Of a stretch of DNA of 64,000 nucleotides, positions 631-63,970 are shown piece by piece (position 1 is the stretch's first letter; each line of letters begins with the position of its first letter). A program made the translations under genes and the position numbers. The stretch is from a virus (Duplodnaviria > Caudoviricetes). The notes beneath the pieces were generated by a model that saw only the letters and a list, made by a program, of their open reading frames with translations, did no database searches and had not been told where the DNA came from. The DNA lies in IMG/VR virus record IMGVR_UViG_3300028628_000004; one strand, given 5' to 3'.

Positions 631-954
631 ATGAAACAAAAAGTTATAGTAGAGTGTGATCTACCTAAAGATTACTGTCTTAATAATGGATTTGCAACTA
701 CCCAGTTACCAGTTCTTCGTATGGGTGACTTTTATGCAATAACCAAAGAAAAGAAGCTCGTAAAAAAAATATTACAGGAAAATGGATTTTCTTTCGATGA
801 TATTCCGTCATCAGAATCAGTTGAATTTGACATAAAGCAAAACTTTACTACAGAGATGGGTCTTTGGGAGAGTAGATTTCATGTATCAGTCGTAAATGGA
901 GATGTCAATAACATTTACGAAGTCTCGACCAATTTGATACAAAAAGATTCTTGA
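631..954 (+). CDS. hypothetical protein
   Basis: ORF with GGAG SD. Confidence 0.6.
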   Translation: MKQKVIVECDLPKDYCLNNGFATTQLPVLRMGDFYAITKEKKLVKKILQENGFSFDDIPSSESVEFDIKQNFTTEMGLWESRFHVSVVNGDVNNIYEVSTNLIQKDS

Positions 955-983
955 CTTCTCTGGCACATCTATATGATGTAACC

Positions 984-2189
984 ATGTCACTACACGATTA
1001 CCTTTCTAAGTACTTCTCTTCTGGCTCCGTTGGAGAGTTTGAGGGAGTTTCTGTAAACCTTGTTGACCACTTCTTCGAGAAGTTTGGAGTCAACGTTAAG
1101 AACGAGGGCGACCTCTGGCAGTTTAAGTACGACCAGTTGGCAGCCAAGTTCTCGTTCCCGCTCGTCAAGGAGTGTCGTGGGCATATCTGGCGTTATGATG
1201 GGGCTTGGACTCGCGTATGTACGCCTCCCGACAAGTTCTTCAACCAGCATGAGGGATACTGCCCTATCTTCAACGATGATGAGTTTTCTCAGAAGCTTTC
1301 GGCGCTTTCGGCTATTCGCAAGGAAGACGGAACGGCTATTGCTGTCTGGTACGACTCCGTTCGTTCGGTTTGGCGTGCTTCAACGCTGGGCGCAATCACC
1401 CCCTTCAAGGTTGGTGATTACGAGATTACTTTCGATGCGTTGTTCTGGAAGACGCTGGGAGAAGAGAACAAGAACATCCTTGAGTCGCAGGGCGACAAGA
1501 ATGTTACCTACCTCTTTGAGCTTTGCTGCTTAGAGAACCGTATTGTCACCAAGTACATCACGGATCGTGTGTTCCTCTTGACGGCTCGTAACAACAAGAC
1601 GGGCGTCTATGAGACTCCATCGTGGTGGGATATCTTCAAGGCATACAAGCCTGACTTCTTCCTGCTCGCTGGGGAAGATAACATCAAGACGCTTGATGAC
1701 TTGAAGCGTTGGGTCGATAAGCAGTCGGATGACACGGCTGACGCTGTGTATCGTGAAGGCTTTGTGATTTACGATGGGCTTACCCCTATCGCTAAGTTGA
1801 AGACGGCTCGCTACTTGTCTCTCCACGCTGTTGGTGGAGGCGACATGAAGCACACGAGGAATGTAGTCATTGACTCGTTCTTCGCTGGAACGCTGGATGA
1901 CATTTGGGGCGTCTTGCACCCTCAGATGCAGGAGTTTGCCGAGAAGCTCAAGGATAAGGTCATTAAGTTGACCAACGAGGCGCTTGCGGCTTCCAAGAAC
2001 ATTGATCCTTCGACCATAGCTTCCCAGAAGGACTATGCGTTGTGGGTCAAGGCGAATGTTCCTCCGATGTTCGCTGGATTCTTCTTCCAGAACAAGGAAG
2101 CGGTTCTTGCCAAGAAGGGCATAACCGAGGACTTTACTTGGTGGGTGAAAGCCAACTACAAGAAGTTCGAGGGCGTCTGGAAGGACTGA
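984..2189 (+). CDS. T4 Rnl1-like ATP-dependent RNA ligase
   Basis: Ligase motifs ECRG, KFFN, KEDGT (I), LFE (III), EGFVI (IV), AKLK (V); ATG 984 preferred, 6 nt after TATGAT. Confidence 0.85.
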   Translation: MSLHDYLSKYFSSGSVGEFEGVSVNLVDHFFEKFGVNVKNEGDLWQFKYDQLAAKFSFPLVKECRGHIWRYDGAWTRVCTPPDKFFNQHEGYCPIFNDDEFSQKLSALSAIRKEDGTAIAVWYDSVRSVWRASTLGAITPFKVGDYEITFDALFWKTLGEENKNILESQGDKNVTYLFELCCLENRIVTKYITDRVFLLTARNNKTGVYETPSWWDIFKAYKPDFFLLAGEDNIKTLDDLKRWVDKQSDDTADAVYREGFVIYDGLTPIAKLKTARYLSLHAVGGGDMKHTRNVVIDSFFAGTLDDIWGVLHPQMQEFAEKLKDKVIKLTNEALAASKNIDPSTIASQKDYALWVKANVPPMFAGFFFQNKEAVLAKKGITEDFTWWVKANYKKFEGVWKD

Positions 2190-3360: not shown

Positions 3361-3810
3361 ATGAAGACCTTATACATATGTGTTGGAATACCCGGGTGTG
3401 GGAAGAGCACTTGGACCGAAAACTTCCTCAAGGATAAGTTGTCGGTAGAAGTTATCAACATGGACAACATCAGGTTTCAGGTAACTGGAAATCACTCGGA
3501 TCAGTCCAAGAATGGATTGGTCGCCGCAAAGGCAATGGAAGCCTTGAAGAAGTCCATGCTGTGTGGAACTAGGGACATTGTATGGGACAACACCACACTT
3601 TCGGTCAAGTACCGCAAGCCGCTGGTAAGTCTTGCCAAGGAGAATGGTTACAATGTCATTGCTGTATTTTTTCAGGTTCCTCTGGAAGTTGCCAAGCAGA
3701 GAAACGCTGCAAGAACCCGCGTAGTTCCCGAGGATGTTCTGGACCGCATGTTCGCAAGCATTGCCCCCCCTTCGCTGGAAGAGGGATTCACCGAGATTAT
3801 AAAGGTCTAA
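3361..3810 (+). CDS. polynucleotide-kinase-like P-loop kinase (AAA_33), no phosphatase domain
   Basis: GIPGCGKST Walker A, DNIR, IVWDNT, RNAARTRVVPEDVLDRM lid motif. Confidence 0.85.
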   Translation: MKTLYICVGIPGCGKSTWTENFLKDKLSVEVINMDNIRFQVTGNHSDQSKNGLVAAKAMEALKKSMLCGTRDIVWDNTTLSVKYRKPLVSLAKENGYNVIAVFFQVPLEVAKQRNAARTRVVPEDVLDRMFASIAPPSLEEGFTEIIKV

Positions 3811-54531: not shown

Positions 54532-54906
54532 TGGTGGAGATGTGCGGTGCTGCCCCGCAGTCCAAAATCACTTTCATATTCCGTCTACAAGTTTAGAAGT
54601 TTAGACTTAAACTCCAAAGATGCTTCTTGTTGATCGTCCTGGCACGGGACTAGGATAATAACGCATATCCGCAACTCACAGTTGTCTTAATCTTGGGTAA
54701 CTGTCAGTTACATTGCCAAGAAGCAACCCCTATGTTACAGAGTTTCCAAGTCGAGATATCCTTGGGACTCTGGCAAGGAGCGATTAAGCTGCCATTGCGT
54801 ATTCAACTGAGTCATCAGTTATTTTTTTACATGTTTTTTAAGTGACCACATGTTCCACTACTTGCAAGAGATACTTCCACGATCCTGTCGAATCTGTGTC
54901 ATCCCC
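54532..54906 (-). ncRNA. ssrA: tmRNA, tag (A)DDSVEYAMAA
   Basis: GGGGATG...CATCTCCACCA with G3:U70, GATTCGAC, ATAACT then tag ORF 54816-54784. Confidence 0.93.
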
Positions 54907-58013: not shown

Positions 58014-58112
58014 TGGTGCGGGCGACAGGATTTGAACCTGCGATTTCTTGCTCCCTGGCAGTTACTATTAGGTAACTAAAGCAAGCGGAATACCAGACTT
58101 TCCTACACCCAC
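58014..58112 (-). tRNA. tRNA-Pro(TGG) interrupted by 22-nt insert (58056-58077)
   Basis: CTTGC-TTT[AGTTACCTAATAGTAACTGCCA]GGGA-GCAAG. Confidence 0.75.
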
Positions 58113-58144
58113 ATCAGAAACTATTATATCACATAAAAAGAAAA

Positions 58145-58219
58145 TGGTCTGGGCGGTTGGAGTCGCACCAACTTCTTCTCCCTTCCAAAAGGAGCCGTCT
58201 ACTGTTGACCTACGCCCAG
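58145..58219 (-). tRNA. tRNA-Pro(TGG)
   Basis: C1:G72, CTCCT-TTTGGAA-GGGAG, CCA. Confidence 0.85.
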
Positions 58220-58220
58220 G

Positions 58221-58931
58221 TTATATTTCAATTCCAAGAATTTTACATCTTTTTCTTATTGCATTATCAGACACCCCGTATTTTACACCTATTTTAGTCA
58301 TAGGCATTTTGCTAACATCATCCATTAACTGCTCTTTACTAACTTCAAATTTACGGCGTTTCTTACAAGAACATTTTAGACATTTATTGTTTTTATTTTT
58401 TGTTGTTACACACCCACATTCGTCACAGTTATGTCTTTTTGCGTGATATTGTTTATTTTTACCAGAAAAAGTAGAAGTTTGAGAGTGGCAGTTTGGGCAT
58501 AAGAAACATAGATTTTCTATTCTGTTATCATTATGTATTCCATTCTTATGTTCTAATTGAAGAGTTATTATCTTACCCAACCATACTCCATTGTTCCCAC
58601 AGCAACTACACTCGTATTTTAGTAATCCTTCATTGACCAATCTTTTTTTAAGATAATGTCTAGCGTATGATGAATTCTGGGTTAATACCTGTGATAATGG
58701 TTTCTTCTTGGCGTTAAATTTTCTACCTTTATTGGAACCTACGCCGAGTGCTATATGTGAAATATCTACTTTTTCTTCGATGCATCTATTTTTAATTGTC
58801 TTGTAATTTCCTCCTTTATTTTCCATTCCGACATATTTTAGTATTTCGCTTATAGTGTTAGATGATGCTACTAATCTAGCGAATTCTTCTTTTGGTATTT
58901 TCCAAATTATGCTTCTCTTTTTTCTTGTCAT
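58221..58931 (-). CDS. free-standing HNH homing endonuclease, paralogue of 54981-55820
   Basis: LQLEHKNG...DNRIENLCFLCPNCHSQT, VSDNAIRKRC. Confidence 0.9.
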   Translation of the reverse strand: MTRKKRSIIWKIPKEEFARLVASSNTISEILKYVGMENKGGNYKTIKNRCIEEKVDISHIALGVGSNKGRKFNAKKKPLSQVLTQNSSYARHYLKKRLVNEGLLKYECSCCGNNGVWLGKIITLQLEHKNGIHNDNRIENLCFLCPNCHSQTSTFSGKNKQYHAKRHNCDECGCVTTKNKNNKCLKCSCKKRRKFEVSKEQLMDDVSKMPMTKIGVKYGVSDNAIRKRCKILGIEI

Positions 58932-58990
58932 ATATTCTCCTTATCGGTAGTATATTATACCATGTATTTATATATCCTACCGATAAAAAC

Positions 58991-59064
58991 TGGTTGGCTC
59001 ACTAGGTTCTGCCCCTAGACTAAAACGTTCAAAGCGTTGTATGCTGCTGTTACATCATGAGCCA
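58991..59064 (-). tRNA. tRNA-Gln(TTG)
   Basis: U1:A72, AACG-CTTTGAA-CGTT, CCA. Confidence 0.8.
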
Positions 59065-59071
59065 ATGATAG

Positions 59072-59188
59072 TTGGGAGTGAGGGATTCGAACCCCCACAG
59101 AGAGATCCTGGCGACTGTTTATGGACTTGAACCACATTGTTTCCTATAACAATCAAAGTCTCTCGTCCTACCATTAGACGAACCCCCA
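59072..59188 (-). tRNA. tRNA-Gln(TTG) interrupted by 46-nt insert (59109-59154)
   Basis: AGAGA-CTTT[GATTGTT...AACAGTCGCCA]GGA-TCTCT; no encoded terminal CCA. Confidence 0.75.
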
Positions 59189-59194
59189 ATGAAA

Positions 59195-59269
59195 TGGTTG
59201 GCACGGTAGGTGCTGCCCCTACTACGTCGGGTGTCAGAAACCCGCATTCTGCTGTTGAATTACGTGCCA
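59195..59269 (-). tRNA. tRNA-Gln(CTG)
   Basis: CGGGT-TTCTGAC-ACCCG, CCA. Confidence 0.85.
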
Positions 59270-59749: not shown

Positions 59750-59824
59750 TGGTGCCTGCCCCCGGTAACGCTCCGGGTTTGTCCGCTCTTCAGGCGGGTG
59801 CTTTACTATTTAAGCTAGACAGGC
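59750..59824 (-). tRNA. tRNA-Phe(GAA)
   Basis: CCGC-CTGAAGA-GCGG, T-loop AGCGTTA, CCA. Confidence 0.8.
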
Positions 59825-59827
59825 ATA

Positions 59828-59898
59828 TGCAGGATAGAGGAATCGAACCTCTGACTCCGGCTTAACTGCCGGTGTGATAACCACTTCACCAATCCCGC
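59828..59898 (-). tRNA. tRNA-like gene with 6-nt anticodon loop, undetermined
   Basis: Full cloverleaf, CCGGC-AGTTAA-GCCGG, no CCA. Confidence 0.55.
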
Positions 59899-60330: not shown

Positions 60331-60447
60331 AAAAGACCACACCGTTTCTGCATTGTTAAGAGGCTGGTATGGTGCTACTGAACGACCACTCATGGTTGAG
60401 CATCTTAGAGAGGCTTGAGTGGGGCGGAGCCGTTTCATGCTCCTTAT

Positions 60448-61042: not shown

Positions 61043-61230
61043 TGGTGGGGGAGGTTGGATTCGAACCAACATGCCTCATCGGAACTTATCAGTTAAGTCC
61101 CACGCCTTACGCTCGTTGGGTAATTACTCCGTATGAGCATCGTGGGTTGAATTCTCTATTGTGAGTAACGTTATCTCTCACAGAAAATTCGTTTGTTCAA
61201 CGAGTCGCTTTGCCATTAGCGTACTCCCCC
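61043..61230 (-). ncRNA. tRNA scaffold with ~80-nt structured insertion replacing the anticodon loop
   Basis: GGGGGAG/CTCCCCC-A-CCA, normal D and T arms, CTCGTTG/CAACGAG stem. Confidence 0.7.
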
Positions 61231-63592: not shown

Positions 63593-63970
63593 TTACTTCA
63601 AAAGCGACAGCTTACCGAAAATAGCTTTGGACACTTCGTTGTCGATGGGTTCAAAAGCAGTTGCGGTTTCTGCGTTAGACATATCGGGTTCTATGAAGGT
63701 GGTGTATGATAACTCCATTCTGTCATAGAGTGCCTTTATGCTTGCAATTTCGTTATCCGTTGCGGAGAGAAGAATCATTGTCTTGTGGTTGTTCACCCAA
63801 TCAATGACTTTGGGCTTCTGTCCGTGTTGTGCCATAAACTCGGCAGCCGCGTGGCTACTCTGTACAGCACAATGAGTTAACGGAAGTATATCTCGTCTGA
63901 TGAGGATGAACATCTTAAGCATTTTGCTATATACCTCCGGTGCCACAGGCACACTCGGGTATGAGAGCAT
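63593..63970 (-). CDS. PTH2-like peptidyl-tRNA hydrolase
   Basis: MFILIRRD, AVQSSHA, W....KT.ILL, F.EPD....TA.A, L.LL; alternative start 63922 with GGAGGT SD. Confidence 0.75.
   Translation of the reverse strand: MLSYPSVPVAPEVYSKMLKMFILIRRDILPLTHCAVQSSHAAAEFMAQHGQKPKVIDWVNNHKTMILLSATDNEIASIKALYDRMELSYTTFIEPDMSNAETATAFEPIDNEVSKAIFGKLSLLK

Follow-up and report, generated by a model that had tools for sequence, protein, structure and literature searches.

tRNA-Shaped Inserts in the Anticodon Loops of Phage tRNA Genes: A Widespread Class with Candidate Protein-Dependent Introns

Interrupted tRNA Genes and Their Inserts

The DNA considered here, referred to as the window, is a stretch of 64,000 nucleotides (nt) from the IMG/VR virus record IMGVR_UViG_3300028628_000004 (Duplodnaviria; Caudoviricetes). 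It is part of a 101.6-kb IMG/VR fragment whose completeness was estimated by CheckV at 44%. A dense tRNA array lies at the end of the window, encoded wholly on the minus strand together with a transfer-messenger RNA (tmRNA; 54532-54906, minus strand, 108.7 bits), and two of its tRNAs are oversized. The first is an interrupted tRNA-Pro(UGG) gene (58014-58112, minus strand), comprised of a 77-nt tRNA with an encoded CCA end and a 22-nt insert. The second is an interrupted tRNA-Gln(UUG) gene (59072-59188, minus strand), which has 71 nt of tRNA with a U1-A72 pair, a 46-nt insert, and no encoded CCA. Both were recognized by Rfam and, with the insert removed, by ARAGORN; RF00005 (cut-off 29 bits) gives 50.7 bits for the Pro gene (58017-58112) and 48.8 bits for the Gln gene (59072-59188). 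Their anticodon loops comprise 29 and 53 nt, respectively.

The Pro insert (58056-58077, minus strand) is a microhelix, i.e., a helix of 6 base pairs (bp) closed by a 6-nt loop and followed by G-CCA, and is located between anticodon nucleotides 34 and 35. The Gln insert (59109-59154, minus strand), which follows nucleotide 35 or, equally well, nucleotide 36, has the shape of a mini-tRNA: a 7-bp acceptor-like helix, an 11-nt linker, a T arm with the loop TTCAAGT stacked directly on the helix, and a terminal G-CCA. The stem of this T arm has 5 bp and not the 4 bp given in an earlier note, which had been made from the letters of this DNA alone. In both inserts the first base opens the helix of 6-7 bp, and N-CCA occupies the four bases past it. 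Such a shared architecture, a helix that begins at the first base and leads to a GCCA end, had been described in the same note, and it is confirmed by the sequence, by ARAGORN, and by shuffled inserts, which gave a terminal helix of equal length with a CCA end in ~1-5 per 100,000 trials for each insert. When the segment from the helix through the CCA was deleted in silico, ARAGORN called Pro(tgg) and Gln(ttg) with ordinary loops, as expected from the claim that exact removal restores Pro-like and Gln-like tRNAs.

Related loci were located via a 145-amino-acid (aa) open reading frame (ORF) adjoining the tRNA-Gln gene. Three longer contigs (L001-L003) belong to the same phage, and two relatives, L004 and L005, share 73% and 67% identity in the neighbour protein. 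L001 extends 5.7 kb past the window end, and two neighbouring genes on it, just past the window, carry further inserts of the same design, which brings the number in this phage to four. The tRNA-Arg insert is a 22-nt sequence with a 7-bp hairpin and GCCA, while the 45-nt tRNA-Asn insert has a helix, a linker, a T arm with the loop TTCAACT, and ACCA. The T arm, whose loop follows TTCRANY, is found in the Gln and Asn inserts; the Pro and Arg hairpins of 22 nt have none and look like a minimal form of the design. The bodies of all four interrupted genes are canonical (49-59 bits with the Rfam tRNA model). The four inserts are mutually unrelated in sequence, and a BLAST search of the genome and its relatives detected no second copy and no parent tRNA. 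Within 20 kb of tRNA array, the interrupted Asn(GUU) gene is the sole tRNA-Asn found, and the only other gene with the Arg(UCU) anticodon is a non-canonical, tRNA-like one.

No close relative was found in INPHARED, where matches were limited to the HNH endonuclease gene of the array (see below) and to generic tRNA similarity. In IMG/VR, the 455-aa neighbour protein retrieved no related locus; no matches were obtained with the exact 3′ half of either tRNA, with the junction of the Gln insert, or with a pattern built on the linker; and an exon-anchored Pro pattern gave three, all of them chance matches outside tRNA genes. Three other loci encoding homologues of the neighbour protein (L007, L008, and L009) have no adjacent tRNA array.

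Boundaries of the Inserts

The exon-anchored Pro pattern, allowing any gap of 0-30 nt, was also used on metagenome contigs in search of the empty site. It matched 92 times; in 91 cases the match is a tRNA-Pro(UGG) gene that has no insert, an identical anticodon arm, and the loop UUUGGGA, and the remaining match is the L005 contig, in which the insert is present. Some of the uninterrupted genes (on contigs L012 and L044) are only three positions apart from the exons of the interrupted gene of L004. Because empty-site alleles exist and the flanking bases leave no freedom, the boundaries of the Pro insert are exact: it is 22 nt long, extends from the first base of the helix to the A of the CCA, and lies at position 34/35, where the earlier note had put it. 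The spliced Pro junction, which had been proposed there as a diagnostic read, is identical to the common bacterial tRNA-Pro junction and is therefore not diagnostic alone.

In the Asn and Arg genes, removal from the helix through the CCA yields the anticodons GUU and UCU, which are those of the syntenic genes of L004. For the Gln gene, the same removal gives the loop CUUUGGA, and an alternative cut at 37/38 gives CUUUGAA. A genome scan showed that both loops occur in natural tRNA-Gln genes with an identical stem, and the closest bacterial relatives of the gene, which belong to Acidobacteriaceae and have U1-A72 and A73 like the phage, carry CUUUGAA. The site 35/36 claimed for this insert is thus one of several, since 36/37 is equal to it and 37/38 is possible; the insert is placed here by parsimony with the other three.

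Retention of the Interrupted Genes and Reshuffling of the Array

The interrupted Pro gene has been retained under selection. Its copy in L005 is identical to that of the window, insert included. The L004 copy shows 18 changes, 17 of which are outside the anticodon arm and the insert (Fisher p = 0.001), and the single change within this part falls within the loop of the hairpin. Among the pairs of the acceptor, D, and T stems in L004, seven are changed on both sides, two on one side, and none is broken. In addition, a -10-like box ~12 nt upstream of the gene is kept in all three phages. Retention in L004 and L005, the compensatory pairs, and the kept -10-like box argue that the gene is maintained and is not a dead gene. 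The anticodon arm with the insert is either the most constrained or the most recently exchanged part of it.

The surroundings of the interrupted genes differ among the phages. A second, uninterrupted tRNA-Pro(UGG) gene (58145-58219, minus strand) lies beside the interrupted one and has an unusual T loop (TGCGACT) and A37, while tRNA-Pro normally has G37; the two Pro genes occur in opposite order in different phages. The interrupted Gln gene is inserted between two resident Gln-like genes, which are adjacent to each other in L004 and L005. One of these is a tRNA-Gln(CUG)-like gene below the Rfam threshold (59195-59269, minus strand) and the other a tRNA-Gln(UUG)-like gene with the anticodon loop CUUUGAA (58991-59064, minus strand); both have non-canonical T loops. 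The Arg and Asn genes of L004 have the same flanks as those of this phage, with different bodies and without inserts. A free-standing HNH endonuclease gene (58221-58931, minus strand; PHROG 10822, 8.3e-47) is situated between the two interrupted tRNAs of the window. The gene order around it varies among L001, L004, and L005, and the endonuclease may drive the shuffling of tRNA cassettes.

A Class of CCA-Ended Inserts in IMG/VR

Inserts of this kind were surveyed in IMG/VR with a pattern comprised of a T loop, 12 nt, CCA, 14-20 nt, and a second T loop. This spacing arises only when a CCA-ended T-arm module sits inside the anticodon region of another tRNA, and the pattern cannot detect the microhelix form, which has no T arm. 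At least 119 viral contigs match it. The 3′ cut was then fixed after the CCA, and every 5′ cut was tried for restoration of a tRNA, which succeeded in 50 of the 124 matches listed; the counts that follow refer to the matches listed as well. For 29 of the 50, the cut that restores the tRNA coincides with the start of a helix in the N-CCA register (27 with 7/7 pairs and two with 6/7). The remaining solutions have 0-5 pairs, and the distribution is clearly bimodal. The 29 cases represent 25 unique inserts of 40-119 nt. The insert site follows nucleotide 34, 35, or 36 in all but one case, and the base preceding the insert is a pyrimidine in 24/25 unique cases.

For the pairing statistics, the 25 unique inserts were combined with the Gln and Asn inserts of this phage. 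The pairs of these 27 inserts were counted by a script in a fixed register, an alignment of seven 44-46-nt inserts by MAFFT having put gaps at the 5′ end. Each helix position shows four to six pair types. The T stem, on which no selection had been made, is paired in 78/81 cells, and overall pairing falls from 98% to ~45% when the partner strand is slid. The helices are all different from one another, and the T loop is conserved across the class. For example, three 45-nt inserts from Ile and Gln tRNAs of other phages have the linker AAAGGAAT and the T loop as in the Asn insert, with helices entirely different from that of the latter. Inserts of 44-45 nt in other phages share the design of the 46-nt Gln insert.

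As a negative control, 86 intron calls made by ARAGORN in 115 control phage tRNA-array loci were inspected, and none has a CCA-ended terminal helix. The earlier note had regarded the loss of the helix or the CCA in relatives as decisive against it; both are kept in the relatives and in many other phages, and the helices covary. The inserts of this phage are, with their minimal 22-nt variant, members of a real and widespread class.

RNA Repair Genes of Insert-Bearing Phages

The phage encodes an RNA ligase of the T4 Rnl1 type (951-2189, plus strand), as had been claimed, which is a candidate for the sealing of exons. The ORF matches PF09511 (1.1e-10, 42 bits, cut-off 28), PHROG 562 over the full length (2.2e-39, residues 51-406), and T4 Rnl1 in the PDB (E ~4e-7), with its KEDG aligned to motif I (KxDG). 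A polynucleotide kinase of 149 aa (3361-3810, plus strand; AAA_33 1.2e-25, PHROG 505) is comprised of the kinase domain only: it matches residues 1-143 of T4 Pnkp (1ltq), i.e., the kinase half, and was rightly said to lack a 3′-phosphatase domain. The argument built on this, that no 3′-phosphatase is present or needed, fails because the phage carries what is by sequence a complete heal-and-seal set. In the region just upstream of the window (L180, corresponding to G000:24000-38500), there are genes for a PHROG 547 phosphoesterase (L180:10711-11382) and a metallophosphoesterase (L180:12089-12847), both within 3 kb upstream of Rnl1. The same region encodes a tRNA nucleotidyltransferase (CCA-adding enzyme; L180:1472-2665), a second RNA ligase with the PHA02142 OB fold (L180:5829-6917), and a short ligase-family ORF (L180:11433-12050), so that the ligase-family genes of this phage number three. 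RNase Z/metallo-beta-lactamase, RtcB, EndA (PF01974), and 2H phosphoesterase were not found in the 101-kb fragment, which is weak evidence at a completeness of 44%.

With regard to other phages, insert-bearing records were compared with control phages that have tight, CCA-encoding tRNA arrays and had been screened for inserts in the tRNA-array loci only; the comparison was made on records at least 90% complete. PF09511 or PF09414 (E ≤ 0.001) was detected in 10/10 insert-bearing records and 4/15 controls (one-sided Fisher p = 3e-4), or in 9/10 and 4/15 when curated cut-offs were applied (p = 0.003). A Pnk-type kinase (AAA_33) over the cut-off was present in 10/10 insert-bearing records and 3/15 controls. 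Among the large insert-bearing records, the kinase occurs in 14/14, usually 1-3 kb from the ligase, and RtcB in 0/14. Elsewhere than in this phage, the kinase ORF either has the length of Pnkp (~310-360 aa) or is short and accompanied by an adjoining PHROG 547-type phosphoesterase. The repair-gene neighbourhoods of 12 insert-bearing phages have nothing in common beyond the kinase, the phosphoesterase, and Rnl1, and no candidate nuclease was found in them.

A Possible Splicing Pathway and Its Alternatives

The strongest clue to the handling of the inserts is that both of their borders fall at the ends of a tRNA-like fold: if the intron itself is tRNA-like, its ends are the two normal tRNA trimming sites. 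The reading that we favour, tentatively and at somewhat less than an even chance, is that the inserts are protein-dependent, tRNA-shaped tRNA introns, trimmed by tRNA-end enzymes and sealed by the repair kit of the phage. We infer every enzymatic step, splicing itself included. Briefly, the insert would fold alone into the top half of a tRNA, with the acceptor helix on the T arm in the case of Gln and as a bare acceptor-like hairpin in the case of Pro. RNase P would then cut 5′ of the first helix base, and an endonuclease would cut directly after the CCA. The tRNA halves would be held together by the acceptor, D, and T framework, while the Pnk kinase, the phosphoesterase, and the Rnl1-type ligase of the phage would heal the ends as needed and seal the anticodon loop. 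The products would be tRNA-Pro(UGG) and tRNA-Gln(UUG), together with a free CCA-tailed mini-RNA. RNase P and RNase E/Z leave 3′-OH and 5′-phosphate ends; these could be joined by an ATP-dependent ligase, and the absence of RtcB would therefore fit. Splicing with sealing by the phage kit is, taken as a whole and whatever the nucleases, probable.

Minihelices of acceptor and T stem that carry RCCA, and even RCCA-bearing hairpins of 3 bp, were reported to be cleaved by bacterial RNase P at rates near those of pre-tRNA, with a preference of the enzyme for U or C at position -1 (PMC11221534, PMC3874170, PMC12710915). Such a substrate has a stacked acceptor and T stem of about 12 bp, or at least a hairpin, ahead of a 3′ RCCA, and a pyrimidine at -1. 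As far as sequence can tell, features of an RNase P substrate are present in the Gln insert (7 + 5 bp, G-CCA, and U at -1) as well as in the Pro insert (6 bp, G-CCA, and U at -1). A one-step endonucleolytic cut directly after the CCA is on record for RNase E acting on the proline tRNAs of E. coli (PMC5291269) and for tRNase Z of T. maritima (PMC3161902). A cut by RNase P at the 5′ border comes close to being an even call, slightly on the doubtful side. The exact scheme of the earlier note, in which RNase P, a cut after the CCA, and Rnl1 act with no healing of the ends, is unlikely.

Several points weigh against the favoured reading. The precise restoration of the loops in silico is to be expected after any recent exact insertion and is no proof of splicing, and the boundary of the Gln insert is not unique and could lie at 37/38. 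The discriminator is U in 8/27 inserts among the matches listed, and the motif is therefore NCCA and not strictly RCCA. The 22-nt hairpins, being without a T arm, are expected to be weaker substrates of RNase P, and the bases that follow the CCA (GGA, GGG, and UAA) depart from the consensus of RNase E (PMC5291269). The tests of association (p = 3e-4 and 0.003) ignore kinship, with several of the records being related, and PF09414, on which they partly draw, is not strictly specific to RNA ligases. Finally, the kinase found in 14/14 records, with its fused or adjacent phosphoesterase, hints that at least one of the cuts leaves a 5′-OH or a cyclic phosphate. A need for healing is suspected because the ends made by RNase P and RNase E/Z require none, and yet the kit is present; a purely hydrolytic route via RNase P and a 5′-phosphate-leaving endonuclease does not predict the kinase. 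The kinase and phosphoesterase suggest one of three arrangements: RNase P acts at the 5′ site and a 5′-OH-leaving nuclease at the 3′ site; the route is fully yeast-like, with some other nuclease; or the genes are a co-inherited repair cassette kept against anticodon nucleases.

The second of these arrangements would be splicing of the yeast/plant type, in which a dedicated endoribonuclease of the phage or the host cuts by transesterification without any part for RNase P and leaves cyclic phosphate and 5′-OH ends, which the phosphoesterase and the Pnk kinase heal before Rnl1 seals them. T4 Pnkp and Rnl1 are known to repair just such ends in anticodon loops. The whole heal-and-seal kit tracks the inserts, as seen for the kinase (14/14 against 3/15 controls over the cut-off), and the phosphoesterase is fused to the kinase or adjoins it, with two such genes beside the ligase genes in this phage. 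We nevertheless regard this alternative as rather unlikely. No candidate endonuclease has emerged, the EndA, RtcB, and RNase Z families being missing from the 101-kb fragment and no further common gene being found near the repair genes of the 12 insert-bearing phages. The match of the intron ends to the 5′ end and the CCA 3′ end of a tRNA would be left unexplained, and the kit could travel as a unit that is kept against anticodon nucleases.

It is less probable still, and distinctly unlikely in our estimation, that the inserts are never removed, so that the genes produce non-decoding tRNA-like RNAs, such as decoys for anticodon nucleases of the host or for tRNA-modifying enzymes, or are tRNA genes recently disabled by a small mobile insert. 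The array is rich in other non-canonical tRNA-like genes, Pro and Gln have extra genes with the same anticodon nearby, and restoration of the loop in silico would follow from any precise insertion. However, the Pro gene keeps all of its stems through seven compensatory changes in L004, and no uninterrupted tRNA-Asn was seen in 20 kb of array. Moreover, the class occurs in many tRNA species, within the anticodon, and in phages with an RNA ligase, and a 22-nt insert with no second genomic copy has no means of moving.

The CCA-tailed mini-RNA might also be the true product, with the outer tRNA as a processing carrier whose halves are discarded unligated. The insert and anticodon arm are far more conserved than the body of the Pro gene (one against 17 changes), and the mini-RNA carries features recognized by RNase P, CCA-binding enzymes, and some synthetases. 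We consider this very unlikely, since it explains neither the site inside the anticodon of canonical tRNAs (49-59 bits), nor the compensatory changes of the body, nor the tight link to RNA ligase.

An intron of a known type, i.e., an archaeal/eukaryal bulge-helix-bulge (BHB) intron or a self-splicing or self-cleaving RNA, is hardly credible: although the inserts are in the anticodon loop and that of Gln can formally be placed at the canonical 37/38, the sequence and its folds lack the BHB motif of two 3-nt bulges with a 4-bp helix between them. At the 5′ border the helix starts directly, without a 3-nt bulge, and four unpaired bases separate the helix from the 3′ border. The Pro site is exactly 34/35, and EndA was not found in the 101-kb fragment. 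Catalytic cores of group I/II introns normally exceed 200 nt, and inserts of 22-46 nt are far too small and have no such core. In Rfam, no ribozyme or other family matches the region or the inserts alone (E up to 1-10). The size, the borders, the Rfam result, and the missing EndA all bear out the initial statement that the inserts are not of group I/II and show no obvious BHB.

Other Features of the Array and Host Leads

A number of other unusual RNAs are encoded in the array. Non-canonical T loops occur in many of its tRNAs. The resident Gln-like genes have the T loops GGCAGCA or GGCAGAA, and a tRNA-Phe gene (59750-59824, minus strand) has AGCGTTA; the homologues of the resident Gln genes in L004 and L005 possess normal TTCGATT loops. 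The non-canonical T loops and the A37 tRNA-Pro may be variants that escape host defences targeting tRNA. A 188-nt RNA (61043-61230, minus strand) has a good acceptor stem, a D arm, a T arm, and an ACCA end, with ~115 nt of structured sequence replacing the anticodon arm. It scores below the Rfam tRNA threshold, is kept, with changes, at L004:8581-8773, and has the look of a non-coding RNA on a tRNA scaffold, as opposed to an intron of the NCCA type. The anticodon loop of another tRNA (59828-59898, minus strand; ARAGORN 'tt') has 6 nt, and that of its counterpart at L004:9811-9886 ('caat') has 8 nt. Both genes score 55-57 bits as tRNA and might act as frameshift-type or non-standard decoders. 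An odd, conserved tRNA-like gene (L001:2801-2876 and L004:2640-2715) lies immediately upstream of the Arg and Asn genes; its loop is CUUCUAA (Arg UCU), its D region is aberrant, and its variable region is long.

The array also contains a gene for a PTH2-type peptidyl-tRNA hydrolase (63593-63970, minus strand) and, past the window end, an amber suppressor tRNA(CUA) at L001:5192-5267. The abiF RNA motif of Rfam (cut-off 37 bits) is present in it at 60385-60422 (minus strand) and at L004:9323-9359, with 41.6 and 52.2 bits, respectively. A further peculiarity is seen on contig L054 (Ga0315291_10005560), a phage-like array of 21 tRNAs in which Lys, Asn, Gly, and Ile genes of 87-91 nt have long variable arms like those of Leu and Ser.

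With regard to the host, the bacterial tRNA-Gln genes closest to the interrupted one in stem, U1-A72, and A73 are overwhelmingly from Acidobacteriaceae (Edaphobacter and Granulicella; L105-L179), and the uninterrupted look-alikes of the Pro gene come largely from peat and soil metagenomes. These similarities offer a possible lead to the host and are no demonstration of it.

Relation to Known Systems and Implications

Conserved introns in the tRNAs of Lak megaphages were described as 'enigmatic' by Devoto et al. (2019), who remarked that one of them 'may encode a tRNA' (PMC6784885), and a jumbo-phage survey of 2026 restates them (PMC13037316). There, too, short and highly conserved inserts split the anticodon region of phage tRNAs, and no mechanism was proposed. 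The Lak Tyr example (Table S6) has 93 nt and, within the limits set by tRNAscan, does not start at a helix or end in CCA (PMC6784885), whereas the inserts of this phage have 22-46 nt, extend exactly from the first base of the helix to the end of NCCA, interrupt the anticodon triplet itself, and in one case have an exact empty-site allele. A literature search retrieved brief remarks on such introns and no paper on their mechanism. The helix-to-NCCA rule, the placement within the triplet, and the link to a Pnk/Rnl kit are new with respect to the two reports.

The favoured reading shares parts with several known systems. To our knowledge, only two routes for the removal of tRNA introns are known, namely the self-splicing of bacterial group I introns and the archaeal/eukaryal route via a BHB endonuclease and a ligase. 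In the latter, which employs RtcB or Trl1 as the ligase, proteins likewise remove a short intron from the anticodon loop. Trl1 of fungi and plants unites a kinase, a phosphoesterase, and an ATP-dependent ligase in one protein, activities that are distributed over separate genes in this phage. Unlike archaeal/eukaryal introns, the phage inserts have no BHB and are located from 34/35 to 36/37 instead of 37/38, and EndA and RtcB were not found in the fragment. The phage intron would be defined by its own tRNA-like fold, whereas the archaeal/eukaryal intron is defined by a fold made with the exons. A second parallel is the repair of PrrC-cut tRNA-Lys by T4 Pnkp and Rnl1, in which the same protein families act on breaks in the anticodon loop and the tRNA body holds the halves. 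However, T4 mends damage inflicted by the host, while in this phage tRNA maturation would itself include a programmed break, and the kinase is split from the phosphoesterase. It is also general knowledge that an embedded tRNA-shaped module can set its own excision sites, as in tRNA-like elements freed by RNase P and RNase Z, such as mascRNA from MALAT1, and in mitochondrial tRNA punctuation. The flanks are not rejoined in those cases, and those of the phage would need ligation into a working tRNA.

Taken together, the inserts could represent a third enzymatic route of tRNA splicing, operating in bacteria and phages with a mini-tRNA as the intron, end-trimming enzymes as the nucleases, and the Pnk/Rnl kit as the ligase, a proposal that we hold as possible and appreciably short of an even chance. 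The freed mini-RNA with its CCA tail may serve a separate purpose, e.g., by luring away enzymes or toxins that bind the acceptor ends of tRNA, and a split anticodon would hide the pre-tRNA from anticodon nucleases of the host until it is spliced. If the proposal is true, tRNA-trimming enzymes double as splicing nucleases, and Pnkp and Rnl1 acquire, in addition to repair, the housekeeping function of a tRNA splicing ligase. The hairpin of 22 nt with its CCA would then be about the smallest protein-spliced intron known and would offer a minimal substrate for biochemical work. Members of the class are common in large environmental phages, and the annotation of their tRNAs, together with inferences on codon use and suppressors, depends on recognizing it.

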